Below are positions 11,336 to 27,060 of a DNA stretch of 64,000 nt, one piece after another. The DNA is taken from positions 3,948 through 67,947 of the forward strand of contig JACRAM010000012.1 of assembly GCA_016213405.1 (NCBI GenBank), in the 5' to 3' direction. Position 1 is the stretch's first letter; each line of letters starts with the position of its first letter. The translations under genes and the position numbers were made by a program. Under the pieces are notes generated by a model that made no database searches, was not told the DNA's origin, and saw nothing but the letters and a program-made list of their open reading frames with translations. Source of the stretch: Bacteroidota bacterium (GTDB taxonomy: Bacteria; Bacteroidota; Bacteroidia; Palsa-948).

Positions 11336-14077
11336 TTAATTCTCAAATTCTTTTGAAAAACTTCTTTCCATTAAGGCAGATTGTTCGCGCTCATGTGCAA
11401 GATGAGATCCTGTAGCAGGGCTTGCACTTGCATGTCTTGAAATTAATTTTAACGAAACACCCTTAACCGTGCGAAGTATATAGTTCCATGCTCCCATATT
11501 CTCAGGTTCTTCCTGAGTCCAAACCCATTCTGAAACATTTTTGTATTTTGAAATCACTTGCTGGAATTGTTTTTCCGGAAAGGGATATAATTGTTCCAGA
11601 CGTATAATGGCAATATGATCTGCTTTATCTTTCTCTTTACGTTCAAGTAATTCGAAATAAATTTTTCCCGAACAAAAAATCACGCGGGATATTTGTTTTG
11701 CATCGGTAGAAACATCATCAATGATTTCTTTAAAGCTACCTTTCACCATATCCTCCATGGTGGAAACGCAACGCGGGTGGCGCAACAAACTCTTCGGGGT
11801 AAATACAATCAGCGGTTTTCTGAAATCTCTTTTCATTTGCCTTCTCAAAACATGAAAAAAATTAGCGGGAGTAGTACAGTTTACTATCTGCATGTTTTCT
11901 TCAGCGCATAATTGCAAAAATCTTTCCAGCCTTGCGCTTGAGTGCTCAGCTCCCTGGCCTTCATAACCGTGCGGAAGCAGCAAAACAATACCGTTCATCA
12001 GTTTCCATTTATCTTCTGCATTACTTATGTATTGGTCAATGATTACCTGGGCACCATTGTTAAAATCTCCGAACTGCGCTTCCCAGATAACGAGTGTGTT
12101 TGGAGAAGACAATGCATATCCATATTCAAAACCGAGCACGGCATATTCGCTAAGCAAGCTGTTGCAGATATAAAAAGCCGCTTGCCCTTTTTTTACATTG
12201 TTCAAGGGGCTGTATTGTTCTTCGCTGTCTTCCACAGGAACCACAGCATGACGGTGAGAAAATGTTCCTCGCTCAACATCCTGCCCGCTGAACCAAACAG
12301 GAAATCCTTCGGATACCAAAGAACCGTAGGCTAGCAGTTCAGCCATAGCCCAGTTTATATTTTCCCCCTTCTGAATCATTGCTTTTCTGTCAGCAAATAA
12401 TTTGGTCGTTTTGTTAAAGAATTTTTTTTCTGAAGGCAAATCGGTAATGCGTTCTCCTATTTCAAGCAACGTATTTTTATCCACTCCTGTTTCGGGCGAA
12501 GCTTCAAAATCTTTTTTCTCCGCCACACGAAATCCTTTCCATTTCCCTTTTGGGTATTCTTCCGAATCGGGGCTGCTCATTTCCTTTGCTAATTTGGCAA
12601 CTTCCATATTTTTCTGAAGCAGTTTTTTAAACTCCAGTTCTATCTCTTTCACCTGATCAGCTTCAATGTCGCCTTGTTGCAATAATTTTTTGGAATATAT
12701 CTCCAAAAGATTCGGGTGTGCAGCAATGGCTTTGTACAATAAGGGTTGTGTGAAGCGCGGCTCATCGTTTTCATTGTGCCCATATTTCCGGAAACCCAAA
12801 ATATCTATGAACACATCGCGATGAAATTTCTGTCGGAATTCCATCGCCAGTTGAATGGTATACACCAGCGCTTCCACATCATCACTATTCACGTGGAAGA
12901 CAGGCGATAAGGTTACTTTTGCCACATCGGTGCAATAGGTGGATGAGCGTCCATCAATGTAATTGGTCGTAAAACCAATTTGGTTATTCACTACAATGTG
13001 AATGGTCCCTCCTGTTTTGAATCCGCGAAGTTGCGACATCTGAATAACTTCATACACAACGCCCTGAGCTGCGATGGCGGCATCGCCATGAATGAGAATA
13101 GGCGCAATCCATTTCTCATTCCCGCCCTCTGTGTTATCCATTTTGGAACGAACGATTCCCTGCACCACAGGATCAACAGCTTCCAGATGTGATGGATTGG
13201 GCGCTAAACTTAAATGAACTTTCTTTCCTGTATTTGTAAGAACATCGCTGGAAAATCCCAGATGATATTTTACATCTCCGGCAAAAGTGATGTTGTCGTA
13301 TTCCAATCCTTCAAACTCTGTAAATATTTCTTCGTATGATTTGCCTAAAATATTTGCCAGCACACTCAATCTTCCGCGATGCGACATGCCGATAACAAAT
13401 TCTTTAATACCCATTTCAGCACCGCAATCAATCACAGCATCCAATGCGGGAATGAGTGCTTCGCATCCTTCAAGTGAAAAACTTTTTTGACCTACAAATT
13501 TTGTGTGAATAAAACTCTCGAAAGCTACCGCCTCGCTCACCTTTTTCAGAATGCGTTTTTTTTCTTCGGCAGAAAAGTTTTTTGAATTACGCGTGCTTTC
13601 CATTTTCTGCTCCAGCCAATCCACCACTTCGGGTGTGCGGATGTATTTATATTCGGCACCAACACTTTCGCAATAGGTTGCGTCCAGATGAGCTATGATA
13701 TCTTTCAGCGTTGCGTCCCCAATGCCGAGCATTGAACCCGCATGAAAAACAGTTTCAAGGTCGTTAGGTGTAAGTCCGAAATTTTCTATTTCGAGTGTGG
13801 GAGAATATTTTCTGCGTGTTCGAACCGGATTTGTTTTGGTGAATAAATGTCCGCGCGAACGATATCCGTTGATGAGGTTAATGACTTTAAATTCCGCCTG
13901 AATATTTTTTCCACCCGATGACAAAGTATCAGGAGGATGTTTTAATTGTGCAAATTCAAAGCCTTCAAAAAATATACGCCAGTTATCATCTACTGATTCA
14001 GGGTTTTGAAGATATTGTTTATACAACGATTCAATCTTTGAATTTTCATCCATGCTTAGGTTATTATATTCCTCCAT
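11336..14077 (-). CDS. sucA: 2-oxoglutarate dehydrogenase E1 component
   Basis: 913-aa ORF. N-terminus ..IESLYKQYLQNPESVDDNWRIFFEGFEF. ThDP-enzyme motifs (GMSHRGRLSVLAN, HGDAAIAAQGVVYE, LLLPHGYEGQGAEHSSARLERFLQ) are characteristic of SucA. Confidence 0.95.
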   Translation of the reverse strand: MEEYNNLSMDENSKIESLYKQYLQNPESVDDNWRIFFEGFEFAQLKHPPDTLSSGGKNIQAEFKVINLINGYRSRGHLFTKTNPVRTRRKYSPTLEIENFGLTPNDLETVFHAGSMLGIGDATLKDIIAHLDATYCESVGAEYKYIRTPEVVDWLEQKMESTRNSKNFSAEEKKRILKKVSEAVAFESFIHTKFVGQKSFSLEGCEALIPALDAVIDCGAEMGIKEFVIGMSHRGRLSVLANILGKSYEEIFTEFEGLEYDNITFAGDVKYHLGFSSDVLTNTGKKVHLSLAPNPSHLEAVDPVVQGIVRSKMDNTEGGNEKWIAPILIHGDAAIAAQGVVYEVIQMSQLRGFKTGGTIHIVVNNQIGFTTNYIDGRSSTYCTDVAKVTLSPVFHVNSDDVEALVYTIQLAMEFRQKFHRDVFIDILGFRKYGHNENDEPRFTQPLLYKAIAAHPNLLEIYSKKLLQQGDIEADQVKEIELEFKKLLQKNMEVAKLAKEMSSPDSEEYPKGKWKGFRVAEKKDFEASPETGVDKNTLLEIGERITDLPSEKKFFNKTTKLFADRKAMIQKGENINWAMAELLAYGSLVSEGFPVWFSGQDVERGTFSHRHAVVPVEDSEEQYSPLNNVKKGQAAFYICNSLLSEYAVLGFEYGYALSSPNTLVIWEAQFGDFNNGAQVIIDQYISNAEDKWKLMNGIVLLLPHGYEGQGAEHSSARLERFLQLCAEENMQIVNCTTPANFFHVLRRQMKRDFRKPLIVFTPKSLLRHPRCVSTMEDMVKGSFKEIIDDVSTDAKQISRVIFCSGKIYFELLERKEKDKADHIAIIRLEQLYPFPEKQFQQVISKYKNVSEWVWTQEEPENMGAWNYILRTVKGVSLKLISRHASASPATGSHLAHEREQSALMERSFSKEFEN

Positions 14078-14173
14078 GATGCAAAGTTAATTATCGCGCA
14101 GAATGTTCGTTAATCATTATTCTGCACCCCATCGGGCAAGAACAGGAATTACATCCTCTCCATATACCGAACT

Positions 14174-14214
14174 AAAAACAAAAAACACCTGTAAGTATTA
14201 AACTCACAAGTGTT
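14174..14214 (-). terminator. Hairpin + T-run, probably the original tRNA-Glu terminator displaced by the island
   Basis: On the minus strand the sequence reads aacacttgtgag-tttaata-cttacaggtgtt followed by ttttgttttt. It starts 15 nt beyond the partial tRNA 3'-end copy at 14229-14243. The stem has 2 mismatches. Confidence 0.55.
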
Positions 14215-14228
14215 TCTGTGATGGATTC

Positions 14229-14243
14229 GTAGCCCGTAGGGGA
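14229..14243. repeat. attL-type core (gtagcccgtagggga), distal copy of the tRNA-Glu 3' end
   Basis: Exact 15/15 match to 26092-26106. Confidence 0.8.
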
Positions 14244-14360
14244 CTTTTAAATGTCTTTTCTGCCTTTTCTTCTTTTGCCTTCATTTGTTGTATTACACTA
14301 TGGTTTTAGAGTGAAATTTGTTGATTAAGCACAAAGTAAGATAAAGAGCAAAGAACTAAA

Positions 14361-14384
14361 AAGTGTCCCCCAAAGTGTCCCCCA
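14361..14384 (+). promoter_or_regulatory. Tandem 12-bp motif aagtgtccccca x2 (candidate recombinase arm site, left end)
   Basis: Read directly. The same tandem motif recurs in the same orientation at 26022-26045. Confidence 0.5.
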
Positions 14385-14427
14385 ATATAAGTTTCTTTTA
14401 CCTTTACCATAACTAAATAATATTATC

Positions 14428-15660
14428 ATGGCAAAAGTAAACTTTTATTTAAAAGACAAAAAGGCAAAAACAGAAACTTTGGTTTATCTGTTTTTTAGTT
14501 ACAACAATGAACGCCTGAAATATTCCACAGGCGAAAAGATACATCCTAAGAATTGGAACTTTGACAATCAAAGGGTGAAAAAATCTTTTTCAGGCAGTTT
14601 AGAGATGAACAATTTATTTGACCGTATAGGAGAAGGGGTACAAAAAATACACAGAGTTGCAATAACTGAAAATCACAATCTAACAAACGAATATCTCAAA
14701 GGAAAACTTGATAAACAAATTAACCCCGATAGAAATTTGCCAAAGGATTTTTTTGATTTCCTGAGTGAATTTATTGAAGTAAACAAAGTATCTAAGACAC
14801 ATCGCACCATTCAGAAATACAAAACATTAGAAAATCACTTGAAAGATTTTCAAACCAAGAAAAATTTTAAACTCTCCTTTGAAAAAATTGATGCAAGGTT
14901 TTACGAACAATTAACAGCATACTTCATAGGTGATTTAAAACTTTTAAACAATTCAAGTGCCAAATACATAAAAACACTAAAAACATTTTTGCATTGGGCA
15001 ACTGAAAGAGGGTATAACGCAAATCTTTCTTTCGTAAAATTTAAAGCACAGGAAAGGGACGCTGATATTATTTATCTCACAGAAGAAGAACTTTTACGCC
15101 TATACAATTTTGACCTTTCTAAAAAAACTGCACAGGAAAATGTAAGGGATGTATTTTGTTTTGGTTGCTTTACTGGATTAAGATACTCAGATATTATTCG
15201 AGTAAAAAAGGAACACATTAAAGGGGATGAATTGCATTTTATATCTGAGAAAACAACCGACCGTTTAATTATTCCTTTAAGTAACTACGCAAAAGCAATT
15301 CTCAAAAAGCATAAATATTCTTTACCAGTTGTTTCAAATCAAAAAACAAACGAACACTTAAAAGAAATAGGCAAGTTGGAAGGGATAGAGATAGACGAAC
15401 CCATTGTCTTGACAAAGTTTCGTGGTGTGGAAGAAATTCAGATTAGAAAACCGAAACATGAATTTCTTTCTTCGCACACAGCAAGACGAACTTTTGTAAC
15501 TCTTTCACTTGAAAAAGGAATGAGACCTGAAACGGTGATGAGCATAACAGGACACAAGGAGTACGCTACTTTCAAAAAGTATATTAAAATTACAAGCAAG
15601 GTTAAACTTGTTGAAATGAAAAGGATTTGGAACAGACCGCAACTAAAAGCAGTATCCTAA
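14428..15660 (+). CDS. Tyrosine-type site-specific recombinase (phage integrase family)
   Basis: 410 aa. The N-terminus resembles an arm-binding/SAM-like region (AKVNFYLKDKKAKTETLVYLFFSYNNERLKYSTGEKI). Catalytic-domain residues are visible: GLRYSDI (Arg), SSHTARRTF (HxxR), GHKEYATFKKYI (His..Tyr). Confidence 0.9.
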   Translation: MAKVNFYLKDKKAKTETLVYLFFSYNNERLKYSTGEKIHPKNWNFDNQRVKKSFSGSLEMNNLFDRIGEGVQKIHRVAITENHNLTNEYLKGKLDKQINPDRNLPKDFFDFLSEFIEVNKVSKTHRTIQKYKTLENHLKDFQTKKNFKLSFEKIDARFYEQLTAYFIGDLKLLNNSSAKYIKTLKTFLHWATERGYNANLSFVKFKAQERDADIIYLTEEELLRLYNFDLSKKTAQENVRDVFCFGCFTGLRYSDIIRVKKEHIKGDELHFISEKTTDRLIIPLSNYAKAILKKHKYSLPVVSNQKTNEHLKEIGKLEGIEIDEPIVLTKFRGVEEIQIRKPKHEFLSSHTARRTFVTLSLEKGMRPETVMSITGHKEYATFKKYIKITSKVKLVEMKRIWNRPQLKAVS

Positions 15661-15678
15661 TCTTTACCCTTTTTTATT

Positions 15679-15686
15679 TACCTTTG
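15679..15686 (+). promoter_or_regulatory. Candidate -7 box (TACCTTTG) upstream of the HEPN gene
   Basis: Matches TAnnTTTG, 7 nt before the TTG start proposed by the ORF track. Confidence 0.25.
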
Positions 15687-15692
15687 CTCTAA

Positions 15693-16085
15693 TTGAGCAA
15701 GCAGAAACATATTGACCATTGGTTAGCAAGCGCAGACAAGGACTGGGATGTGTTGCTCCACTTGATAAAAGGCAAAAAATATGTTCATGCTTTGTTTTTC
15801 GGACATCTCTATTTGGAAAAACTTTCTAAAGCATTATGGGTACAAAACAATTCTGAAAACCATCCACCGAGAACACACAATTTGTTAAAGTTGCTGAATG
15901 AAGCAAATGTTTCACTGGGTGAAAATGACCAACTGTTTTTACTCAAACTCAACAAATATCAGATTGAAGGACGTTACCCCGAAGACATTGAAAAACTTTA
16001 TGCCATCACGCACAAAGAATTAGCAACCGAATACATTAAAACAATTAAACAACTTCAACTATGGCTGCGAAAACAACTGCGATAA
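15693..16085 (+). CDS. HEPN domain protein (toxin-like partner of MNT)
   Basis: 130 aa. ..HALFFGHLYLEKLSKALW.. and ..YQIEGRYPED.. resemble the HEPN (kanamycin-NT C-terminal-like) family. It overlaps the downstream nucleotidyltransferase gene by 25 bp. The start is TTG in the ORF track, so the start site is uncertain. Confidence 0.7.
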   Translation: MSKQKHIDHWLASADKDWDVLLHLIKGKKYVHALFFGHLYLEKLSKALWVQNNSENHPPRTHNLLKLLNEANVSLGENDQLFLLKLNKYQIEGRYPEDIEKLYAITHKELATEYIKTIKQLQLWLRKQLR

Positions 16086-16375
16086 ACTATTCAAAAAGAT
16101 TTTTGAACGCCTGCAAGGAACTACCCATTAAAATTGACAGGGCAATTCTTTTCGGCTCTGTGGCGCGGGGTAAAGCAACTTCCGATTCAGATATTGATTT
16201 GGCTTTATTTTCGGATAGTTTTTCAAATAACATTCTGAAAAATATTGACTTGCTCGGCAAGGTGCTGATTCATTATCCCGAATTAGATGTGCATACTTTC
16301 CCTTCACACAGCCAGAAGAAAGATAGCATGATGGAAGATGAAATAAAACAAACAGGCATTGCAATAAAAGTTTGA
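16061..16375 (+). CDS. Minimal nucleotidyltransferase (MNT) domain protein
   Basis: 104 aa with LFGSVARGKATSDSDIDLALF, the GS..RG..(D/E).D pol-beta-type nucleotidyltransferase signature. Confidence 0.85.
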   Translation: MAAKTTAINYSKRFLNACKELPIKIDRAILFGSVARGKATSDSDIDLALFSDSFSNNILKNIDLLGKVLIHYPELDVHTFPSHSQKKDSMMEDEIKQTGIAIKV

Positions 16376-16474
16376 AGTCAGTTGAGTAGATAAGTTGCAC
16401 AGCATTTTCACAGATAAAAGTTTTGATGTAAATAGAAAACTTCACTTTTCTATACAACTTTTTTATTTTTTTGC

Positions 16475-17023
16475 ATGAAACAACAACAAACATCAGGATT
16501 GTTAAACTGGAATCCGACAAAAGGAAATCCATTTGATTATCAAATCCACAATTACAAAGACACTATTTCAAATGATACGGAATGGAAGATTGAAAAGCGA
16601 ACAAACACCAAAGAGAAACCAATCAAACAAATTTATTTTTTTCATCATTTGAAAACTCTTGCAAGTTTGAATTTAAAATTTATTGAATTGCTGAATGGCG
16701 TTGATAAGGGTAATATAGTTACGCTTCTTGATAAGCAATACATTGATTGCACAAAACCGATAGTGGTATGGTTTACTTATCCCTTTAGCCAAAACGTAAA
16801 AGCAACCATCTATCCGCTTGTAAGAACATTTGATGAAAGCAAACAACAAATCATATCTGAACACGCAGGATATTTAATATGGCAGATTGCAAGAGTATAT
16901 GCCGAAATTTATCAAAATCATTGGGAAAGTGTTGGCATATATGGACACGGATTTGCAGATTTATATTTGGAAGGACTTGAGTTCTTCAAAAACAATGAAG
17001 TTGAATTGCTGATGGGCGCATAG
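16475..17023 (+). CDS. Hypothetical protein, no recognisable family
   Basis: 182-aa ORF with ordinary, non-low-complexity composition, co-oriented with the rest of the island. I recognise no motif. Confidence 0.6.
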   Translation: MKQQQTSGLLNWNPTKGNPFDYQIHNYKDTISNDTEWKIEKRTNTKEKPIKQIYFFHHLKTLASLNLKFIELLNGVDKGNIVTLLDKQYIDCTKPIVVWFTYPFSQNVKATIYPLVRTFDESKQQIISEHAGYLIWQIARVYAEIYQNHWESVGIYGHGFADLYLEGLEFFKNNEVELLMGA

Positions 17024-17029
17024 ATTTTT

Positions 17030-17246
17030 TTCTTGCTTCTTTGTTGGTGAAAATATTTTTTTCACGCAAAAGAAAACAAAAACGAAAAAAAATAAAAACT
17101 TGAAAACTTGAAAACTTGAAAAAAATAAAAAAACACAAGAAACAGCATTGTATTGAAAAAAAAGCAAAAAAAGAAACATAGAAACGAAAAAAAGAAACAG
17201 AAATAAAAAACTAAAAAAAAGAAAATCCAAAAATAAAAAATTTAAA
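17030..17246 (+). repeat. Polypurine A-rich tract with 3 x aaaacttg and repeated agaaac(a/g) words
   Basis: ~215 bp almost devoid of T/C on the plus strand. It contains the tandem aaaacttgaaaacttgaaaacttg (17090-17113) and agaaacag/agaaacat/agaaacga/agaaacag words. Confidence 0.8.
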
Positions 17247-18299
17247 ATGCTTAGAAAAGTTGATAAGCCAGACCAATTTGATGAGTTTATGGAAGCAATC
17301 ATGCTTCTTGGCAAAGCATCAGTTGAAAATTCTAAGTATTACGAAACAAAAAGAAAAACACTTTACACAGAATTAGAAAAACTTAAAACACCAGAAGAAA
17401 AAATAAAGTTTTTGGAAAACGAAAAAATAAAAAACCATGACGACCTAATTGAAAAAAAGAAAAAATATTACAATAATGAAAATGTAAACATGGTAAGTAT
17501 TGAACATTTGTATAAAAGGTTTGATAAGGAAATTTCAGGCGAGATTGCTAAATATGAACCTTTAATAAAAACAAAACAAAAAAATACAATGAATCCTCTT
17601 TCTAATGACGAAATTATTTCTTCTGGTCTTTTAAATAAAGCAATAGAGAATCATAAATTCTATTTAGATGAAAAACAAAAACGATTTCAGGAATTAAAAA
17701 AGAGAAAAACATACTATGAAAAATGCGAATATTTAATGACGAACAAAGCAAACCTAATTGAACTTGCACAGGAACATCAAAACGAAATATTAAAAACTTC
17801 AACCGCAGACGAAAGGGCTTATGATATTGATGTAATGGCAGGAGTGTTGGAAAGATTAAAATACGAAAATGAATCCTTATTACAGGAATACAAACCCTTC
17901 CTTGCTTTAGAAATCGAAAATAATAAACAAAAAGAAAAAAAGGAAAATTCAGAAAACGAGAAAAATAAAAATGCAGATGAATTAGATTTAACGGAACAAA
18001 TTTTACTTATCAGTTATTTGCAGGACGAGGGATTATTTGTTAAACGCAAACCACAGCAAACCGAAAAAAATATACAGGATTTAATTGCACTTCTTTTGAA
18101 CCAAAATTATGAAACTATAAAATCAAAATTTCAAGATATTAAAACCATAAAAGAAGGTAGAATTACCTCCGCACAAGCAAGACATAAAATAAAAAATCTA
18201 AAAAATATTTCCGAAATTTTTAAAACAATTAGCGCAGATAATACCTACAAAAAAATAAACGAGCGAATAACAGAATTAGAAAAAATTGCTAATTCTTAA
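17247..18299 (+). CDS. Hypothetical Lys/Glu-rich, probably coiled-coil protein
   Basis: 350-aa ORF, highly charged (runs of K/E/N). No catalytic motif was recognised. Confidence 0.6.
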   Translation: MLRKVDKPDQFDEFMEAIMLLGKASVENSKYYETKRKTLYTELEKLKTPEEKIKFLENEKIKNHDDLIEKKKKYYNNENVNMVSIEHLYKRFDKEISGEIAKYEPLIKTKQKNTMNPLSNDEIISSGLLNKAIENHKFYLDEKQKRFQELKKRKTYYEKCEYLMTNKANLIELAQEHQNEILKTSTADERAYDIDVMAGVLERLKYENESLLQEYKPFLALEIENNKQKEKKENSENEKNKNADELDLTEQILLISYLQDEGLFVKRKPQQTEKNIQDLIALLLNQNYETIKSKFQDIKTIKEGRITSAQARHKIKNLKNISEIFKTISADNTYKKINERITELEKIANS

Positions 18300-18400
18300 C
18301 TCATTTTTTCTTTTCTTAAAGTTCGGGGCTACCCCGAACCCTACCCCCGCAGTTAAGCAGACATACCTTTGGCAAAGAATTTCAAAAAATACTTTGTCAA

Positions 18401-18691
18401 ATGGAAAACCAATTAATCGTTACCCTGAAAGTTGATGAACTGAAAGGAATCATCAACGAAAGCGTGTCAAACGCTATCTCAAAAATCCCACACCAACCCA
18501 AAGAAGATGATTCTTTGTTACGAAGAAAAGACGTAGCAAAATTATTTTCTGTTTCGCTTGTAACTATTTCCGCATGGATGAAAAGTGGAAAGTTGCCGTA
18601 TCACCGCATCAATTCCAGAATCTTCTTTAAAAGGAAAGAAGTAATGGAAGCAATGCAATCCACACAAAAATATAAACGCTTACATAAATGA
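18401..18691 (+). CDS. Excisionase-type helix-turn-helix DNA-binding protein
   Basis: 96 aa. LLRRKDVAKLFSVSLVTISAWMKSGKLPYHRINSRIFFKRKEV fits the MerR-like/excisionase HTH_17 pattern. Its stop overlaps the start of the primase gene (ATGA). Confidence 0.75.
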   Translation: MENQLIVTLKVDELKGIINESVSNAISKIPHQPKEDDSLLRRKDVAKLFSVSLVTISAWMKSGKLPYHRINSRIFFKRKEVMEAMQSTQKYKRLHK

Positions 18692-20658
18692 AAAAGCCCC
18701 ATCTCGACAACGGGGCTTCAATCACGGAAAATAATTTTCCTTTGGAAATTCAGCAAGACAAAGGTAAAGATTTCCCGATTAACGCCAAGCCGTTTGTTTC
18801 CATTTATGAAACAGTAACGGATTCGGCCCCGAAACAAATTTCCATTTACGAAGCCCTGAGTAAAGTTTCTTCGGGCGAACTGGAAAAACAAATACTTGCG
18901 ATACGCGAATGTAAAATCAAAGAAGAAAGAGATAAACTGAAACGGAACTTACCTTCTATTACTGTTTCGGGAACTTTCAGCAAGGGACACGCGAAAGAAA
19001 ACATTACAGAGCATAGCGGATTAATTCAAATTGATTTTGATTCGGTAGAAAATCCTGCCAAGACGAAAGAAATTTTTAGGAATGATGTTTTCACATTCGC
19101 AACCTTTATCAGCCCATCGGGAACAGGTGTAAAAGTTATTGTAAAAGTTTCTCCTGAAAAACATTCTGAAAGTTTTTTGTTACTGAAAAAGTTTTATGCA
19201 GAAAAATATGGTCTAAAACTTGACGAAAAATGCAAGGACGTAAGCCGTTTGATGTTTTTAAGCCATGACAAAAATATTTTCGTCAATCCGAACTCTGTTT
19301 TATTCGATTCTGTTAGCCGAGATGTAGAAAAAATTATTTTGCATATAGAAAAAAATAAAATTGATATTAGCCCTGATTATGATAACTGGTTAAAAATTGG
19401 CTTTGCTTTTTCTTCTTACTTTGGAGAAACAGGAAAAAACTTTTTTCACCGCATAAGTAAATTTTATACGAAATACTCTTTTTTAGATTGCGAAAAACAA
19501 TATAATAACTGTTTGCGGGAAGAAAAAACCGCAAAGACGCAAGAAAAACGAGGGGTTTCTATAAAAAGTTTCTTCGCAATAGCAAAAAGTTTCAGTATAA
19601 ACATTTCTTCAGAAACGAAGAAAACAAAACCAGAAGAACCAGAAACAGAAAAGACAGAAGAAACAACAAAAGGAAGAAACGAAACAAAAACTAAAAACGA
19701 AACATCAAAGTTTTTTCTTGTAGAAAAGTTTATCAGTAGTCGTTACGAAATTCGATATAACGAGGTATCAAATGAAGTAGAATGTAAAACGAAAAATGAA
19801 ACAGAGTATAAAGCCCTAAATGAAAATAATCTTTTCAGAGAACTACAATTAAACAATATTTATTTCCCGCAAAACAATTTACTTGCTTTGCTTCGTTCTG
19901 ATTTTGTTTCGTCCTATAATCCAATAAAAAAATATTTTGATGAATTGCCTGAATGGGATAATACTACCGACCACATCAAAAAATTATGCAGTTATATCAC
20001 AGTAAAAGACCAAGAAAGATTCAACAGGCAGTTCAAAAAAATGCTTGTTCGCTGTATTGCTTGCGCCCTGCATGGTATTTTCAATAAACACGCTTTTATC
20101 TTAATTGGCGGGCAGAGTAGCGGAAAAACAACCATTACACGCTGGTTATGTCCGCCAAAATTGAAAAACTACATGGCGGAAAATATTTCTACTGATAAGG
20201 ACAGTTTAATTGCGCTATCAGAAAATTTTTTCATCGTACTGGATGAAATTGCTTCCCTGCATAAGACGGAACAAACCGCGCTGAAAAGTGTTTTCACGAA
20301 AGACAAAATAAAAATCAGGCGACCATTTGACCGAAAACCAACTGTAAGTATACGAAGGGCAAATTTTATCGGTTCAACAAATAAATATGAATTTCTAAAT
20401 GATGAAACTGGCTCTGTGCGCTGGCTTTCTTTCGTGATTGAAAAAATTGATTTTAATTACTCACAGGAAATAAATATTGATTTGGTCTGGGCGCAGGCGT
20501 ACACACTTTTTAAAAGCGGATTCAAATACGAATTAACGCTTGATGAAGTATTTGAAAACGAAAATTCAAACTCCGAACATCAGCAAACTTCAGTCGAAGT
20601 GGATTTGATTCAAAAACATTTTGCACTGCAACAAAAGAGGGCTACGATAAATATTTAA
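18688..20658 (+). CDS. VirE-family primase/helicase-like replication protein (BT4734-like N-domain + P-loop NTPase), frame-broken near the 3' end
   Basis: The N-terminal part SGTFSKGHAKENITEHSGLIQIDFD..FISPSGTGVKVIVKV fits a primase-like N-domain. Walker A is LIGGQSSGKTT and Walker B is FIVLDEIASL. The ORF stops at 20658, but a family-typical tail continues in another frame. Confidence 0.75.
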   Translation: MKKPHLDNGASITENNFPLEIQQDKGKDFPINAKPFVSIYETVTDSAPKQISIYEALSKVSSGELEKQILAIRECKIKEERDKLKRNLPSITVSGTFSKGHAKENITEHSGLIQIDFDSVENPAKTKEIFRNDVFTFATFISPSGTGVKVIVKVSPEKHSESFLLLKKFYAEKYGLKLDEKCKDVSRLMFLSHDKNIFVNPNSVLFDSVSRDVEKIILHIEKNKIDISPDYDNWLKIGFAFSSYFGETGKNFFHRISKFYTKYSFLDCEKQYNNCLREEKTAKTQEKRGVSIKSFFAIAKSFSINISSETKKTKPEEPETEKTEETTKGRNETKTKNETSKFFLVEKFISSRYEIRYNEVSNEVECKTKNETEYKALNENNLFRELQLNNIYFPQNNLLALLRSDFVSSYNPIKKYFDELPEWDNTTDHIKKLCSYITVKDQERFNRQFKKMLVRCIACALHGIFNKHAFILIGGQSSGKTTITRWLCPPKLKNYMAENISTDKDSLIALSENFFIVLDEIASLHKTEQTALKSVFTKDKIKIRRPFDRKPTVSIRRANFIGSTNKYEFLNDETGSVRWLSFVIEKIDFNYSQEINIDLVWAQAYTLFKSGFKYELTLDEVFENENSNSEHQQTSVEVDLIQKHFALQQKRATINI

Positions 20659-20885
20659 CGGCAACCGATATTCTTAGTTGTCTTGCCCAGCAATATCCGC
20701 ATTTATTAAAACAAAGCAATAAAATAGGAATCGGGAAAGCACTTACCTATCTCGGTTTCAAAAAAATTTCTTTTCGGGAAGCGAACAGGCAACCGAAGTA
20801 CGTTTATTATATAAAAATTGTAGAAGCACTACCTACACTTACTACAATAACGCAACACATTCAAACTGATAATTTAGAGATGTAG
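20640..20885 (+). other. Out-of-frame C-terminal continuation of the primase/helicase gene
   Basis: Frame 3 is open from 20556 to the TAG at 20883-20885. It reads ..KEGYDKYLTATDILSCLAQQYPHLLKQSNKIGIGKALTYLGFKKISFREANRQPKYVYYIK.., which looks like a genuine protein tail rather than noise. Confidence 0.5.
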
Positions 20886-20969
20886 TAAGATATATTTATT
20901 TTATCTTACTACATCTAACTACTTACTACTATATGACATTTTTTGTAGTCAGTAGTAAGAGTAGTAAGA
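20838..20969. repeat. Six copies of the 8-mer GTAGTAAG in both orientations, including an 11-bp perfect inverted repeat
   Basis: Forward copies are at 20882, 20952 and 20961. Reverse copies (cttactac) are at 20838, 20905 and 20922. The inverted repeat gtagtaagata-N9-tatcttactac spans 20882-20912. Confidence 0.8.
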
Positions 20970-20980
20970 GGTTTCCGCAT

Positions 20981-21043
20981 CGTTACAACAACGCTACAAC
21001 ACCGTTACAACATGGCTACAACATGGCTACAACATGGCTGCGG
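20981..21043 (+). repeat. Iteron array: 5.5 x 11-bp units (cgttacaacaa cgctacaacac cgttacaacat ggctacaacat ggctacaacat ggctgcgg)
   Basis: Read directly. The period is exactly 11 bp. Confidence 0.85.
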
Positions 21044-21120
21044 ACTGGTTAAATAACGTAAAATAACAGTTGCAACACAGTTAATAATGTCTGTAAATCT
21101 TTAACTGCTCCTTATCCTTA

Positions 21121-21162
21121 TCAAATCAAATCTTCAAAAATTCAAATCTTCTTCAAATCATT
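21121..21162 (+). repeat. TCAAATC(T/A)T repeats, the last two as an 11-bp tandem (ttcaaatcttc ttcaaatcatt)
   Basis: Read directly. Copies start at 21121, 21126, 21142 and 21153. Confidence 0.7.
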
Positions 21163-21206
21163 CCCATATCTTTTCCTTGACTTTATCATGTCGGTTGTAG
21201 AAACGC

Positions 21207-21239
21207 CTTGATACTTCTTTGATACTTCCTTGATAATGC
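21207..21239 (+). repeat. Iteron array: 3 x 11-bp units (cttgatacttc tttgatacttc cttgataatgc)
   Basis: Read directly. The period is 11 bp. Confidence 0.8.
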
Positions 21240-21299
21240 TTTAATAATCCTGAAAGCACACGCCTTACTTTACTTTACAAAACTTATCCGTGAAAAGAA

Positions 21300-21307
21300 T
21301 ATATTTG
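21300..21307 (+). promoter_or_regulatory. Candidate -7 box (TATATTTG) that would give a ~235-nt leader for mod
   Basis: Matches TAnnTTTG. Only TTTA, not TTTG, lies ~24 bp upstream. Confidence 0.3.
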
Positions 21308-21383
21308 CTCTCAACAAAAATAAAAACCATTAAAGTATAGAAACATAATACAGTTCAAATAAAGAATTTGCGTTAAGCCAATT

Positions 21384-21548
21384 TTCGTATCAGGAAACTG
21401 CTAATTTTCAAAGTACACGAAAGAAAGGTGAAACGCTCACGCAATGCGTGGGCTTTTGCTTTTTTCGTGTACTGGGATAGCAGTCCCTCTGATACGGATT
21501 AGTAGAATGTCCCACGCAGGTTTTTTTGTGGCTGCTAACACAAAAAAA
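21384..21548 (+). promoter_or_regulatory. Candidate structured RNA leader / regulatory element upstream of the Type III mod gene
   Basis: Nested complementary pairs: 21386-21393/21489-21496 (8 bp, extendable), 21397-21403/21478-21484 (7 bp) and 21413-21422/21463-21472 (10 bp, extendable). An apical palindrome cacgca-a-tgcgtg lies at 21438-21450. The apical tgcgtggg (21445-21452) is also complementary to the downstream cccacgca (21511-21518), which is followed by T7. A 10-bp hairpin tttttttgtg/cacaaaaaaa (21521-21530/21539-21548) ends 1 nt before the ATG. Confidence 0.4.
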
Positions 21549-21549
21549 T

Positions 21550-23451
21550 ATGACTGAACTTATTTGGGAAGGAAAGTACAAGGACAATAAAAAAGTTGCG
21601 CCTGTACGGATTGCCCTTCCATTTCAAACGATTGAAACAGTAAACGAGAGCGCACAGCAACGGCAAAAGACACTTGATTTTTTCGCAAGCGGAAAAACTA
21701 CCGAGTGGCGCAACCGACTTATTTGGGGCGACAAAAAATATGTTCTCCCTTCTTTGTTGCCAGAGTTTGCAGGAAAAGTAAACCTCATTTACATTGACCC
21801 TCCGTTTAATGTTGGTTCTGATTTTTCTTTTACCGCTACAATTCCCGATAATCCTGAAACAGAACAAGACGAAACAATTTCGTTTACAAAAGAGCCAAAC
21901 GTTATAGAACAAAAAGCATACAGAGATACTTGGGGTAGAGGTCTTGACAGTTACTTGCAATGGTTTTACGAAACAATATTATTGTTGAGGGAATTACTTT
22001 CTGAAAACGGAAGTATTTATGTTCATCTTGATTGGCGTTTGGCTCATTATGCTAAAACGGTTTTAGATGAAGTCTTTGGCTACGAAAATTTCAGAAATGA
22101 TTTACGATGGAAAAGGCAACCAGTAAGAGGTGCAAAAGCAACAGGTAATCAATATGCAAGAAATTCTGATATTATTCTTTTCTATTCTAAATCTGAAAAA
22201 TATATTTGGAATAACGCATACAAACCTTATGACCCTAATTTTATTAAGGAAAAATTTAGACCTGATAAAAAAGGTCGTTTATATCGTGATTCAGATTTAG
22301 GAGATTATTCGGAAGAATCCATTGCTGAATTTGAAAAGCAAGGGAAAATATATCTCACAAAAAATGGCAATAAAAGATTGATTCGCTTTCTTGATGAAGA
22401 AAAAGGTGAAGCACTTGGTGATATGTGGGTTGATATTCCAGAAGTAAATTCACAGGCAAAAGAAAGAGTAAATTATCCTACACAAAAACCCGAAGAACTA
22501 TTAGAAAGAGCGATTAATGCAAGTAGTAATCAAAATGATTTAGTCTTAGATTGCTTTTGTGGAAGTGGAACTACTGCAACTGTTTCTGAAAAATTAAATC
22601 GCAGATGGATTACTTGCGACTTAGGTAGATTTGCGATTCACACAGCAAGAAAAAGATTTTTAGAAATAAAAGATGTAAAACCTTTTGTAGTACAGAATCT
22701 CGGCAAGTATGAAAGGCAACAATGGGTGCAGGCAGAGTTTGAAAATACAGAGAACCGCACCGCACAGGAAAAAGCATATCGCAATTTTATTCTCGACCTC
22801 TATCACGCAAAATCCATTACTGGCTATGTATGGTTGCACGGCTCAAAGGCAGGTAGAATGGTTCACATTGGCAATGTGGACTCCCCTGTTTCAAATGGAG
22901 ATGTAAAAGCAATCGTTCAGGAACTTTGGAAATCAGTTGGCAAAAAATCAGATATTAAAAATAACGGAATAGATATTCTCGGATGGGATTTCGCATTTGA
23001 ACTGAATGAAACCGCAAAAGAATTTGCTTCAAAAAATAAAGTTGATTTGAAATTCAAAAAAATTCCTAACGAAGCGTTGGAAAAGAAAGCAGTTGAACAG
23101 GGAGATGTAAAATTTTATGAGTTGGCATATCTTGATGTGAAGGTGAAAAAAGAAAAGAAAAAAATTTCCCTCACGCTGAATAATTTTGTTGTCCCGCCTG
23201 ACGATATACCAGAAGAGGTCTTGAAAAACATAACTCATTGGAGTCAATGGATTGACTATTGGGCTGTGGATTGGAATTACGGCAATGATACATTTCATAA
23301 TGAATGGCAGAGTTACCGCACAAAACAAAATTCAAAAATTGAATTGAGCGCAACAAATACCTACGAGAAAACAGGAAAATATACTGTGATTGTAAAAGTG
23401 ATTGATATACTCGGAAATGATACAACAAAGGCAGTAGAAATAGAAGTATAA
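21550..23451 (+). CDS. mod: Type III restriction-modification system DNA methyltransferase (Mod; N6/N4 beta-class)
   Basis: Motif IV IYIDPPFNVGSDF precedes motif I VLDCFCGSGTTATV, the order seen in beta-class/Type III Mod. The gene lies directly upstream of a Res helicase-nuclease. The ATG at 21550 (MTELIWEGKYKD) is preferred over the TTG at 21526 from the ORF track. Confidence 0.85.
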   Translation: MTELIWEGKYKDNKKVAPVRIALPFQTIETVNESAQQRQKTLDFFASGKTTEWRNRLIWGDKKYVLPSLLPEFAGKVNLIYIDPPFNVGSDFSFTATIPDNPETEQDETISFTKEPNVIEQKAYRDTWGRGLDSYLQWFYETILLLRELLSENGSIYVHLDWRLAHYAKTVLDEVFGYENFRNDLRWKRQPVRGAKATGNQYARNSDIILFYSKSEKYIWNNAYKPYDPNFIKEKFRPDKKGRLYRDSDLGDYSEESIAEFEKQGKIYLTKNGNKRLIRFLDEEKGEALGDMWVDIPEVNSQAKERVNYPTQKPEELLERAINASSNQNDLVLDCFCGSGTTATVSEKLNRRWITCDLGRFAIHTARKRFLEIKDVKPFVVQNLGKYERQQWVQAEFENTENRTAQEKAYRNFILDLYHAKSITGYVWLHGSKAGRMVHIGNVDSPVSNGDVKAIVQELWKSVGKKSDIKNNGIDILGWDFAFELNETAKEFASKNKVDLKFKKIPNEALEKKAVEQGDVKFYELAYLDVKVKKEKKKISLTLNNFVVPPDDIPEEVLKNITHWSQWIDYWAVDWNYGNDTFHNEWQSYRTKQNSKIELSATNTYEKTGKYTVIVKVIDILGNDTTKAVEIEV

Positions 23452-23453
23452 AA

Positions 23454-26012
23454 ATGGGAAGAAAGAAAAAACAAATAGCAAACGCTCCTGAACTATTTAA
23501 TATTCAGGAACGGCTTTCAACTGCGCCCTGTGTTCCTGCAATCCGCAGTGAAATAAAAAAATGGAGAGATAACGGCTACAAAGGGATTACAGATACTACC
23601 AGAGAACTATTGAATTACTGGTTTTATACTGACCACCCGAACCGTTTTAAATATCACCTTGCCCAACAAGAAGCGATTGAAACGCTGATTTACATTTACG
23701 AAGTAAAAAAGATTCGCACACGAAAAGAGTTGCTTGAAAAATATGCTATCAATCAAAAGGACTTGCGTTTGCCTCCTTATGACAATTTTGCTCGGTACTG
23801 TATTAAAATGGCAACTGGCAGCGGAAAAACAAAAGTGATGTCATTAGCAATCGCTTGGCAGTATTTTAATGCAGTAAGAGAAGATGAAAAAGAATACGCA
23901 AAGAATTTTTTGATTATTGCCCCGAATATAATTGTGTTTGACCGATTGAAAACTGATTTTGAAAGTGGACGTATTTTTAAAACCGACCCTCTTTATCCCC
24001 GACACTTTGAACTATTTTGGAATTTTGATTTTTATATGCGTGGAGATGGAGAGCGTACTAATAGTGATGGCGGATTATACCTTACAAACATTCAGCAATT
24101 TTATGAAAGAGATAACGGAAAATCGGATGAGCCAGATGTTATGACACAAATGCTCGGCAGTAAACCACCCGCAAGCAAATCTGAAATATCCGATTTCGCA
24201 AGCAGAATAGTTAAGCGCGATGGATTAGTAATGCTATTGAACGATGAAGCGCACCACACACACGAAGAAGATAACGAATGGAATAATTTTATCCGCACAC
24301 TTAACGAGAAGAAAACACTTTCAGCGCAAGTAGATTTTTCCGCTACTCCACGATATTCTAAAGGTTCTCTTTTCGCTTGGACAATTTTTGATTACCCCCT
24401 TAAACAAGCAATAGTGGACAGAATAGTTAAACGTCCGATAAAAGGAATTTCAAAAATTGATGAAGCAAAATCTACTACTGCAAGTATCAGATACAAAGGA
24501 TTCTTAACCGCAGGGGTTGAGCGATGGAAAGAATACACAGAGCAACTTTCTCCCCTAAAGAAAAAACCGATTCTGTTTGTAATGATGAACAATACGGATG
24601 AAGCGGATGAGGTTGGCGACTGGTTAAAGACGAAATATCCTTCGCATTTTGGAGGAGATAAAACACTTATCATTCATACTGATAAATCAGGGGATGTATC
24701 AAAAAAGGATTTGGAAGAAGCGAGAAAACTTGCTCGTGAAGTAGATGATGAAAAATCACCTGTGAACACAATTATTTCCGTGCTAATGCTTCGTGAAGGT
24801 TGGGACGTGCAGAATGTAACAGTAGTAGTAGGATTGCGCCCTTATTCAGCAAAAGCAAACATACTTCCAGAGCAAACCATCGGCAGAGGACTTCGCCTTA
24901 TGTTCAGGGGATTAGTAGATGATTACCAAGAGCGTGTAGATATTATCGGCAATAAGGCATTTATGGATTTTGTTTCCGAACTTGAAAGATTAGAGAATAT
25001 AAAATTTGAAACCTATGACATCGGAAAAGACAAATTAAAGATTATCACCATTGAGGCAGACGAAAAAAAAATAAAAATGGATATTGGTATTCCCGATATT
25101 TCGCCTTTGCTTGAAAGAAAAAAATCTTTAGCGGATGAAATAGGAAAACTTGACGTAACAAAATTCAATATTCCAAAACTTCCTTTGCGCGGAAAAGATA
25201 TTGAGGACTTAAAAACTTTTATTTATGAAGGGAAAGACATTTTAACCGATGAAAAATTATTTGAACGTACATACACCATTCCACCTGTACAAACTCCAGA
25301 GGAAGTAATAGGATATTATGCCCGCAGGATTGCTAAGGATATTAAATTGCCTTCGCAGTTTGCCTCACTTGTACCGAAGATTAGAGATTTTTTTGAAGTG
25401 AAAGCATTTGGAAAAAAAGTTGATTTGAATGATGAAAATGTAATAAAGGCAATGAGTAGCAACGTAGCAAGTTTTGTAGTCATAAAAGAATTTGAAAAAG
25501 CATTACGAGATATTGTTGTAGAAGTAAGAACACCCGAACTCATAACAGAGAAACGGCAACTATCTTCAACCGCACCTTTTCCGTTCTCTCGTTTGGCGTA
25601 TGAATCAAAGAAAACAGTATTTAATTACGTTGCTTGCAGTAATGAATACGAAAGAGACTTTGCAAAATTTCTTCATGGCGCAGGTGATGTAAAAGCATTT
25701 GCAAAACTCCCAGAGCAATTCGGATTTTGTATTCAGTACACCGATAAGTTGGCAAACATCAGAAATTACTATCCTGATTTTATTGTTGTCTTAAAAGACG
25801 GCTCACATTGGATTGCAGAAACGAAAGGCAGGGAAGACGTAGAAGTTGCGTTAAAAGATAACTCTGCGCTTCTCTGGTGCAAGAACGCAACGGAACTCAC
25901 AGGAACAAATTGGAATTACATTAAAGTTCTGCAAAAAGAGTTTGAATCACTCAACCCAAGTGAGTTTGAAGATTTGAATGTGCTTTCTGCACAGACGGAA
26001 ATAGAGTATTAA
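23454..26012 (+). CDS. res: Type III restriction enzyme Res subunit (SF2 helicase + PD-(D/E)xK nuclease)
   Basis: Helicase motifs are present: motif I MATGSGKT, motif II LNDEAHH, motif VI QTIGRGLR. The C-terminal YYPDFIVVLKDGSHWIAETKG fits a PD..(D/E)xK nuclease core. The start is 2 bp after the mod stop. Confidence 0.9.
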   Translation: MGRKKKQIANAPELFNIQERLSTAPCVPAIRSEIKKWRDNGYKGITDTTRELLNYWFYTDHPNRFKYHLAQQEAIETLIYIYEVKKIRTRKELLEKYAINQKDLRLPPYDNFARYCIKMATGSGKTKVMSLAIAWQYFNAVREDEKEYAKNFLIIAPNIIVFDRLKTDFESGRIFKTDPLYPRHFELFWNFDFYMRGDGERTNSDGGLYLTNIQQFYERDNGKSDEPDVMTQMLGSKPPASKSEISDFASRIVKRDGLVMLLNDEAHHTHEEDNEWNNFIRTLNEKKTLSAQVDFSATPRYSKGSLFAWTIFDYPLKQAIVDRIVKRPIKGISKIDEAKSTTASIRYKGFLTAGVERWKEYTEQLSPLKKKPILFVMMNNTDEADEVGDWLKTKYPSHFGGDKTLIIHTDKSGDVSKKDLEEARKLAREVDDEKSPVNTIISVLMLREGWDVQNVTVVVGLRPYSAKANILPEQTIGRGLRLMFRGLVDDYQERVDIIGNKAFMDFVSELERLENIKFETYDIGKDKLKIITIEADEKKIKMDIGIPDISPLLERKKSLADEIGKLDVTKFNIPKLPLRGKDIEDLKTFIYEGKDILTDEKLFERTYTIPPVQTPEEVIGYYARRIAKDIKLPSQFASLVPKIRDFFEVKAFGKKVDLNDENVIKAMSSNVASFVVIKEFEKALRDIVVEVRTPELITEKRQLSSTAPFPFSRLAYESKKTVFNYVACSNEYERDFAKFLHGAGDVKAFAKLPEQFGFCIQYTDKLANIRNYYPDFIVVLKDGSHWIAETKGREDVEVALKDNSALLWCKNATELTGTNWNYIKVLQKEFESLNPSEFEDLNVLSAQTEIEY

Positions 26013-26021
26013 AGTCATTAA

Positions 26022-26045
26022 AAGTGTCCCCCATAGTGTCCCCTA
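26022..26045 (+). promoter_or_regulatory. Tandem 12-bp motif aagtgtccccca tagtgtccccta (candidate recombinase arm site, right end)
   Basis: Same orientation and near-identical to 14361-14384. Confidence 0.5.
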
Positions 26046-26079
26046 TAAAACAAAAAACTCCCAACTTCGATATGAAGTT
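26046..26079 (-). terminator. Hairpin (aacttc-N5-gaagtt) followed on the minus strand by gggagttttttgtttt; island-borne terminator for tRNA-Glu
   Basis: The 6-bp stem lies at 26063-26068/26074-26079. The minus-strand T-run corresponds to 26046-26057. The element lies 14 nt past the tRNA 3' end. Confidence 0.45.
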
Positions 26080-26091
26080 AAGAGTTTATCA

Positions 26092-26106
26092 GTAGCCCGT
26101 AGGGGA
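26092..26106. repeat. attR-type core (gtagcccgtagggga) within the tRNA-Glu 3' end
   Basis: Exact 15/15 match to 14229-14243. Confidence 0.8.
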
Positions 26107-26164
26107 ATCGGACCCCTGTTTCCAGGATGAAAACCTGGCGTACTAACCCCTATACGAACGGGCC
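26093..26164 (-). tRNA. tRNA-Glu (anticodon UUC)
   Basis: The reverse complement reads GGCCCGT TC GTATAGGGGTTAGTAC G CCAGG TTTTCAT CCTGG AAAC AGGGG TCCGATT CCCCT ACGGGCT A (72 nt). It folds as a cloverleaf with a 7-bp acceptor stem (G1-U72 wobble), 5-bp anticodon stem, 7-nt loop with TTC at positions 34-36, and a 5-bp T stem. CCA is not encoded. Confidence 0.9.
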
Positions 26165-26975: not shown

Positions 26976-27060
26976 AACACAAAAATAAAGATTATTTCTA
27001 TCTTTACCCTGTTGGATATAAAAAAAATCCTGTACGGTTAACTGACACAAATTCCATATC

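Follow-up and report, generated by a model that had tools for sequence, protein, structure and literature searches.

What is the 11.9-kb interval that lies between two copies of a 15-bp repeat in the genome of an uncultured member of the Bacteroidota, and how did it come to abut a tRNA gene? The interval occupies positions 14229-26106 of the DNA analysed here (hereafter the window, by which we mean the whole 64-kb stretch), and a first-pass annotation, made from the letters of the window and its open reading frames (ORFs), had read it as an integrative island in the 3' end of tRNA-Glu(UUC). We consider it very probable that the interval is an 11,863-bp site-specific integrative element, one of a Bacteroidota family whose tyrosine integrase targets tRNA genes at their 3' ends, in this case tRNA-Glu(UUC). 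It has the features by which tRNA-targeting islands are recognized, namely a duplicated tRNA 3' end, an integrase with the catalytic residues, insertion breakpoints, and a deviating composition. We place it broadly among tRNA-targeting tyrosine-integrase integrative elements that carry defence cargo and in no narrower class, because we detected neither the relaxase that would make it an element of the nonreplicating Bacteroides unit (NBU) type nor the packaging genes and virion association that would make it a phage satellite.

The target tRNA gene is the only tRNA gene in the window. ARAGORN placed tRNA-Glu(ttc) at 26092-26164 on the minus strand, and the Rfam tRNA model RF00005 gave a full-length match at 26093-26164 (minus strand, 58 bits), identical to the coordinates of the first-pass annotation; the remaining Rfam matches in the window were far under their gathering scores. 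The gene is intact, and its 3' end is made up of the tRNA-proximal copy of the att core, GTAGCCCGTAGGGGA, at 26092-26106. The tRNA-distal copy is at 14229-14243. The repeat is exact, as had been reported, and there are exactly two copies in the window even when two mismatches are tolerated, compared with an average of 0.02 matches expected by chance from shuffled sequences. Between the cores (14244-26091) the GC content is 34.2%, as against 39.8% for all of the sequence outside the island, so that the impression of A/T-richness gained by eye is upheld by computation. The left and right flanks have GC contents of 44.4% and 38.0%, respectively, and every segment of the same size outside the island has a higher value (minimum 36.4%). 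Of the two compositional checks that had been suggested, GC content thus set the island apart, but its tetranucleotide deviation was only moderate and was not unique within the window.

The gene nearest to the tRNA-distal core encodes a tyrosine integrase of 410 amino acids (14428-15660, plus strand) with an N-terminal arm-DNA-binding domain (Pfam Arm-DNA-bind_5, Phage_int_SAM_5, and Phage_integrase). In an alignment of 20 homologs that are 48-93% identical, residues R252, K275, H350, R353, H376, and Y385 are invariant. Lack of the R-H-R-Y residues had been named as a finding that would speak against an island; all four are present (R252, H350, R353, and Y385). A profile search against solved structures gave weak matches to XerA (5hxy) and to a SAM-like domain, which were enough for motif placement, and in it the FTGLR, H-TARR-TF, and GH...Y motifs of the integrase line up with those of XerA. 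A single-sequence search of the integrase against solved structures gave no match.

The strongest evidence for the ends of the element comes from related elements in other hosts. Integrases 61-93% identical to that of the window have an identical or nearly identical core in front of their genes, and the host sequences around them are unrelated. The same 15-bp core and left-end layout were found in L082/L083 (integrase 93% identical), L084 (69%), and L089-L092 (68%), and the core with one or two mismatches in L087/L088 (67%), L093-L096 (68%), and L104/L105 (61%). Aligned at the nucleotide level, the window and L082 match from the very first core base (14229, equivalent to position 3599 of L082) onward, with 93% identity through int and 86% identity over the gene for an HTH_17 protein, the primase-helicase gene, and a repeat-rich intergenic region. 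The flank of L082/L083 is a PorP_SprF gene, and the flank of L084 is an EPSP synthase gene. Insertion breakpoints, in the form of the same ends joined to unrelated flanks, are seen in L082, L084, L087, L089, and L093, and they coincide with the island boundaries drawn by the first-pass annotation. L089 is a complete relative of 5.9 kb, with the core at 9804-9818 and at 15706-15720; the latter copy is the 3' end of a tRNA-Glu(ttc) gene. Complete tRNA-Glu elements range from 5.9 to 11.9 kb. A further pair, L097/L098 (integrase 65% identical), has a 16-bp repeat formed by the 3' terminus of a tRNA-Arg(ccg) gene, together with two copies of a different arm motif, AAACTGTCAATA; the element in L097 (features at 3560-3930 and 14270-14360) is about 10.5 kb long. 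The target appears to have been switched in this pair together with the arm-site specificity. Such covariation of target and arm motif with the integrase is as expected of functional core and arm sites.

The arm motifs of the window lie inside each core. At the integrase side, the 12-mer AAGTGTCCCCCA occurs twice in exact tandem (14361-14384); 117 nt separate this pair from the core, and 43 nt separate it from the int ATG that follows. At the tRNA side, a pair in the same orientation lies 46 nt from the core (26022-26045); its first copy (26022-26033) is exactly AAGTGTCCCCCA, but its second (26034-26045) is TAGTGTCCCCTA, with two mismatches. The earlier description of a tandem 12-bp motif repeated twice near each end was therefore accurate for the left pair and slightly overstated for the right one. 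An 8-mer, GTGTCCCC, is intact in all four motif copies, and these account for four of its five occurrences in the window. A 33-nt direct repeat (family D14, 85% identity) spans the left and right pairs. Left-type pairs are at the equivalent position in L082, L084, and L089, and co-varying variants in L087, L093, and L097; the pairs of L087/L088 and L093-L096 read ACTGTCCCC. Right-end pairs equivalent to that of the window are present in L082 and in L089, which has motif pairs on both arms. The flanking positions that are mismatched in the second right-arm motif are also variable among the relatives. The layout that had been proposed for arm sites, with the same orientation at both ends, thus recurs in independent relatives in unrelated host contexts. 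The Arm-DNA-bind_5 domain is compatible with heterobivalent binding of the integrase (Int) to core and arm sites, and we infer that the GTGTCCCC motifs are the sites bound.

A terminator-like structure accompanies each end. On the minus strand just outside the tRNA-distal core, and so not part of the element, there is a hairpin followed by a T-run (14170-14217); the folded part, 14217-14181, has 16 pairs, a free energy (dG) of -22 kcal/mol, and a z-score of -5.5. The second hairpin and T-run (26046-26087, minus strand) is supplied by the island and lies directly downstream of the rebuilt tRNA-Glu gene; its folded part, 26087-26055, has 14 pairs, a dG of -18.2 kcal/mol, and a z-score of -5.4. 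The first-pass annotation had taken these structures to be the displaced host terminator and its replacement. Both hairpins are real by folding, and both are similarly placed in the relatives. A host-side hairpin and T-run, of unrelated sequence, is present in four of the five contexts that were folded. Unrelated examples are at the same place outside the core in L082 (where the T-run is T8), in L084 (dG -24.6 kcal/mol, z -7.7), and in L087, and by reading in L093-L095. The element-side hairpin is present at all three of the right ends available; in L082, where it again follows the motif pair, and in L089 the structure is kept while the sequence differs. The hairpin at 14170-14217 presumably served as the terminator of tRNA-Glu before the insertion and is now separated from that gene by 11.9 kb, and the recurrence of the other hairpin supports its predicted role as the replacement terminator.

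These parts can be assembled into a model of integration. The catalytic domain of Int would act on the 15-bp identity block while its N-terminal domain would bind the tandem GTGTCCCC pairs, whose distances from the core are 117 nt (integrase side) and 46 nt (tRNA side). Integration would exchange the last 14-15 nt of the tRNA gene for the identical copy carried by the element. The host terminator would be replaced by the hairpin and T-run that the element encodes, so that the tRNA would stay functional, and would itself end up outside the distal core, where it lies upstream of sucA. In the circular form, attP is predicted to have the order arm pair, hairpin and T-run, 15-bp core, 117 nt, arm pair, 43 nt, int, with the junction TTAAGAGTTTATCA-GTAGCCCGTAGGGGA-CTTTTAAATGTCTTT. 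The predicted attB junction is TTCTGTGATGGATTC-GTAGCCCGTAGGGGA-ATCGGACCCCTG. The HTH_17 protein probably acts as the directionality factor or as a regulator. It accompanies the integrase in nearly all of the relatives: its gene is beside the integrase gene in L082, L084, L087, L094, L097, L104, and L106, and L089 has a stretch (12655-12865) with 75% nucleotide identity to the HTH_17 gene of the window. The backbone of the element would then consist of int, a helical ORF (ORF350), the HTH_17 gene, the primase-helicase gene, and an iteron-rich putative origin of replication (ori), to which two variable cargo slots are added. Transfer between cells would presumably depend on a helper.

The position of the left arm pair suggests a further role for it. 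The sequence TACCTTTA (14400-14407) immediately follows this pair upstream of int, and its counterpart in L082 is TACCTTTG. The latter sequence is also present in the window at 15679 and 18364, upstream of the HEPN and HTH_17 genes, and it matches the -7 box of Bacteroidota, TAnnTTTG. Since the left arm pair is directly upstream of a -7 box of this type, Int may be autoregulated, with its binding to the arm sites regulating the promoter of its own gene.

The gene content of the island was examined by searches of Pfam, PHROGs, PADLOC, and NCBIfam. All of the large ORFs are on the plus strand, and the domain matches agree with the gene list of the first-pass annotation (integrase, excisionase-type helix-turn-helix [HTH] gene, primase/helicase, HEPN-MNT, and Type III restriction-modification [R-M]). 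The first cargo slot holds genes for a HEPN-domain protein of 130 amino acids (15693-16085; PF05168, E 1.5e-13) and for a minimal nucleotidyltransferase (MNT) of 104 amino acids (16061-16375; NTP_transf_2, PF01909, E 4.6e-12), which overlap by 25 nt in the manner of a HEPN-MNT toxin-antitoxin pair. The MntA_antitoxin model scored 38 bits on the MNT protein, under its cut-off of 60. In L082 a SocA_Panacea gene occupies this slot in place of HEPN-MNT. The second cargo slot holds a Type III R-M system of adjacent genes, as judged by predicted domains. The methyltransferase Mod (633 amino acids; 21550-23451, with the start taken from the gene call in the Logan contig L081) matches N6_N4_Mtase (E 5e-46) and PADLOC MTase_III (E 3.6e-101). 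The Type III-like restriction subunit Res (852 amino acids; 23454-26012) combines a helicase with a C-terminal PD-(D/E)xK-type endonuclease and matches ResIII, RE_endonuc, and PADLOC REase_III (E 3.8e-22); a BPTD_3080-family model gave 284 bits, under its cut-off. L082 has a different Type III R-M system, so that the cargo of the two elements is unrelated. The PADLOC and Pfam matches back the earlier reading of this cargo as defence, and they support a predicted defence or addiction function for both HEPN-MNT and the Type III R-M system.

Between the two slots are the HTH_17 gene and two ORFs without a family assignment. The HTH_17 protein, of the excisionase/AlpA type, has 96 amino acids (18401-18691; HTH_17, E 2.2e-10), and the stop codon of its gene overlaps the start of the primase gene. 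It matches the excisionase family phrog_66 in PHROGs, and the TIGR01764 model "excise" gave 25.4 bits against a cut-off of 28.8. ORF182 (182 amino acids; 16475-17023) had no match in any of the four collections, and its single-sequence AlphaFold2 model was unusable (pLDDT 35). ORF350 (350 amino acids; 17247-18299) is K/E-rich and predicted to be all-helical; it likewise had no match in the four collections and is not recognizable as a relaxase. Its AlphaFold2 model is all-helix and of low confidence (pTM 0.32), and a homology search returned six homologs, none of them named and none with a Pfam domain. A partial homolog in L082 has 329 amino acids. The stretch between these two ORFs (17040-17250) is extremely A-rich and of low complexity, with many short tandem repeats, and the 1-kb segment 17001-18000 has a GC content of 26%.

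The primase-helicase (18688-20658; BT4734_N, PriCT_2, and VapE in Pfam) ends at 656 amino acids, compared with 733 for its ortholog in L082. A 1-nt deletion near 20630, where the window reads GCACTGCAACA and L082 reads GCGCCTGCAACA, shifts the frame at KHFA|PATKEGY. The rest of the C-terminus follows out of frame at 20613-20867, and it is still 80% identical over 85 amino acids to residues 649-733 of the L082 protein, which indicates that the frameshift is recent. Downstream, an ORF-free, repeat-rich stretch extends to the Mod gene (20659-21549). Within it, the region 20878-21246 contains a 39-bp palindrome (20878-20916), a 9-bp unit repeated 2.2 times, 11-bp iterons repeated 5.6 times (20978-21039), and an 11-bp unit repeated 3.5 times (21208-21246). 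Conservation of this region with L082 is 88%, although the iterons are fewer there, and the repeats make the region a putative origin of replication, or possibly an origin of transfer (oriT). A conserved terminator-like hairpin (21435-21453) follows the repeat-rich region.

The element is also present in an independent Logan contig, L081 (run SRR12113407), which is 100% identical to window positions 13266-23834, including the left junction, and carries the identical sequence at the frameshift. An assembly artefact confined to the contig of the window can therefore be rejected, although the two assemblies possibly share reads and a read-level error is possible. The best match to the host SucA is 89% identical at the amino acid level and comes from a groundwater metagenome-assembled genome. 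Neighboring host genes include those for SprB, CHU_C, and type IX secretion system (T9SS)-tail proteins. The collections contain no close relative of the host, so that the earlier description of the island as recently acquired can be taken only as a suggestion. In exact-protein look-ups, SucA and Res were not on record, and the sole record of the GH18 protein was a 3.4-kb contig from SRR12113407.

Several observations weigh against reading the interval as an integrative element of this kind. The compositional deviation of the island is modest, and the primase-helicase is truncated, with about 80 C-terminal residues lost. No relaxase, recognized oriT, packaging gene, or capsid-redirecting gene was found with Pfam, PHROGs, and NCBIfam. 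Searches for the empty site and for a circular junction recovered neither; as the host is known from the single run SRR12113407, this absence is uninformative. A SucA-based scan of species genomes (80 loci) found no synteny with the locus in the window, and a metagenome scan for the left junction gave no matches. The 40 best-matching SucA loci were scanned for tRNAs, and in none of them was tRNA-Glu beside sucA, which implies that the tRNA-Glu/sucA adjacency inferred for the empty site is not conserved among the relatives. In L104-L106, furthermore, the sequence to the left of the distal core resembles the right-end remnant of another element, and because of this the stranded hairpin of the window could in principle derive from an earlier occupant of the site and not from the host. 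No arm-motif pair precedes the hairpin in the window, which argues for its host origin.

Some related observations were made in passing. The sequences left of the distal core in L104 and L105 (9700-9815) and L106 (9720-9800) contain a second tandem motif pair, degenerate or different, with a hairpin and T-run. The arrangement could reflect the insertion of one element beside another that then decayed, or it could be an attP-like junction. In L104 and L105, the roughly 11 kb that follow int contain no tRNA-Glu. A scan for the empty site in the host of L082/L083 recovered only the occupied contig. In a SucA relative (L006, 76% identical), a tRNA-Ser(gga) gene lies directly upstream of sucA (1371-1456).

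Among the alternatives to a still-mobile integrative element, the one that survives best is an immobilized, decaying island, which would have arisen by the same integration but would now be immobile and retained through addiction to its R-M and HEPN-MNT modules. R-M and toxin-antitoxin modules stabilize the DNA that carries them. The frameshift in the primase-helicase and the two mismatches in the second right-arm motif are in keeping with decay; the mismatched positions, however, vary in the relatives too, and the frameshift is recent by the similarity that the out-of-frame C-terminus retains to L082. The truncation makes autonomous replication doubtful, so that the earlier description of the element as self-replicating probably does not apply to the copy in the window, which is likely to be impaired in replication. 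Excision of this copy is nevertheless plausible, since no damage is seen in the two att cores, in any of the four GTGTCCCC copies, or in the integrase and HTH_17 genes, and we think it rather unlikely that the island has become immobile.

A second alternative is that the element is a Bacteroidota phage satellite comparable to P4, the phage-inducible chromosomal islands (PICI), or the virion-encapsidated integrative mobile elements (VEIME), in which case a helper phage would induce its excision and replication and package it, and the defence cargo would sit in hotspots. Like the VEIMEs (PMC9618062) and the other satellites, the element has an integrase, an AlpA/excisionase-type HTH protein, a primase-helicase (here frameshifted), an ori-like region, a small size (5.9-11.9 kb for the complete tRNA-Glu elements), a specific integration site of a kind that includes tRNA genes, and defence systems in two variable slots. 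VEIMEs with genes for an integrase, AlpA, a primase-helicase, and R-M have been reported as integrated in marine bacteria, Flavobacteria among them (PMC9618062). Distant phage relatives also exist for the replication and integration modules of the window element, with integrases at most 38% identical and a VapE protein 26% identical. Against this, none of the ORFs matched a family of terminase small subunits, capsid-size, head-morphogenesis, or anti-repressor proteins, a weak negative as two ORFs are uncharacterized, and those two, ORF182 and ORF350, offer no lead. The failure to find packaging or capsid-redirection genes sets the element apart from described satellites, as does the lack of close relatives in viral contig collections: searches of IMG/VR with the integrase and with the left-end DNA pattern yielded nothing closer than prophage integrases of 31-40% identity. 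A satellite of this kind is on balance improbable.

A bolder extension of this idea would make the family an undescribed lineage of Bacteroidota phage satellites or of helper-dependent episomes. Such a lineage would be built on an int/HTH_17/replicase backbone with two exchangeable defence slots. Its core and terminator would form a "tRNA-repair cassette", its promoter-adjacent arm sites would couple int expression to the recombination state, and it would switch between tRNA-Glu and tRNA-Arg targets together with the arm motif. We offer this as speculation and would expect it to be wrong more often than right by a wide measure.

Still less probable is an integrative mobilizable element of the NBU type, which would excise and then be moved by a conjugative element resident in the same cell, with the palindrome at 20878-20916 as its oriT. 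NBU1 and NBU2 of Bacteroides are elements of about 10-11 kb whose tyrosine integrases enter the 3' ends of tRNA-Leu and tRNA-Ser genes through a short common core (PMC5704250), and the size, host phylum, and mode of integration of the window element are similar. Both systems also have a small accessory DNA-binding protein for directionality, a role that in the window would fall to HTH_17, and an intergenic palindrome such as that at 20878-20916 could serve as oriT. The NBU1 backbone has a primase-like gene. The class is defined, however, by a MobP relaxase (PMC5704250), and no relaxase or mobilization family was found in any ORF of at least 96 amino acids with Pfam, NCBIfam, and PHROGs, nor was a relaxase present in the precomputed Pfam lists of the relatives. 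The window element, in which neither MobP nor a recognizable oriT was detected, differs further in its target (tRNA-Glu) and in its cargo, which consists of defence systems and not of antibiotic resistance genes.

A remnant prophage, to which integrases of this family in Bacteroidota temperate phages (at most 38% identity) might point, is effectively refuted by the lack of structural and lysis genes and by end architecture shared with relatives that are consistently small and also lack such genes, and ordinary chromosome with a chance repeat is rejected because the core is non-random and coincides with homology breakpoints, so that we give this last pair of explanations almost no weight.

The preferred interpretation, a site-specific integrative element of a tRNA-targeting family, can be set beside two further known systems. 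The 10K island of Riemerella anatipestifer is a Flavobacteriales island of about 10 kb with direct repeats that include a tRNA 3' end and with a tyrosine integrase, and its integrase-mediated integration and its excision to a circle were shown experimentally (PMC6764341). Its repeat is 53 bp long and apparently includes a terminator-like hairpin, in contrast to the 15-bp core of the window; its target is tRNA-Arg and not tRNA-Glu; and its integrase gene adjoins the tRNA gene, whereas that of the window is at the tRNA-distal end. In its N-terminal arm-binding domain, its repeated arm-type motifs on both arms away from the core, and its excisionase-type partner, the element resembles systems with a lambda-type heterobivalent integrase. 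It differs from these in having a single tandem pair per arm, both in the same orientation, with the left pair abutting the int promoter region; the arm sites of the window are predicted ones.

Islands that combine a tRNA-targeted tyrosine integrase with defence cargo are already well known, and current understanding is unchallenged by this one. Its value is as a cleanly delimited and comparatively validated case of small integrative elements spreading defence systems among uncultured environmental Bacteroidota. The defence modules carried by such elements include Type III R-M, HEPN-MNT, and Panacea-type toxin-antitoxin systems. The parts of attP (the 15-bp core, the two arm-site pairs, and the integrase) could also become a tRNA-Glu-targeting integration vector for Bacteroidota, as with the Riemerella island.

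Two of the relatives showed additional features in their surroundings. The flank gene on the tRNA-distal side of L089 (8631-8898) is homologous to the ORF at 26283-27137 just upstream of tRNA-Glu in the window (matching region 26493-26760), and a transglycosylase gene is syntenic on the tRNA side (L089 18619-19111 and window 29501-29993). Together these imply that the region around tRNA-Glu has been rearranged in one host relative to the other. In L084, tRNA-Cys(gca) and tRNA-Phe(gaa) genes (7883-8034), which may be cargo or may mark a boundary, lie about 5 kb downstream of the integrase gene; on one side of them are the replication genes and on the other is an additional block with a Type III R-M system at its end.

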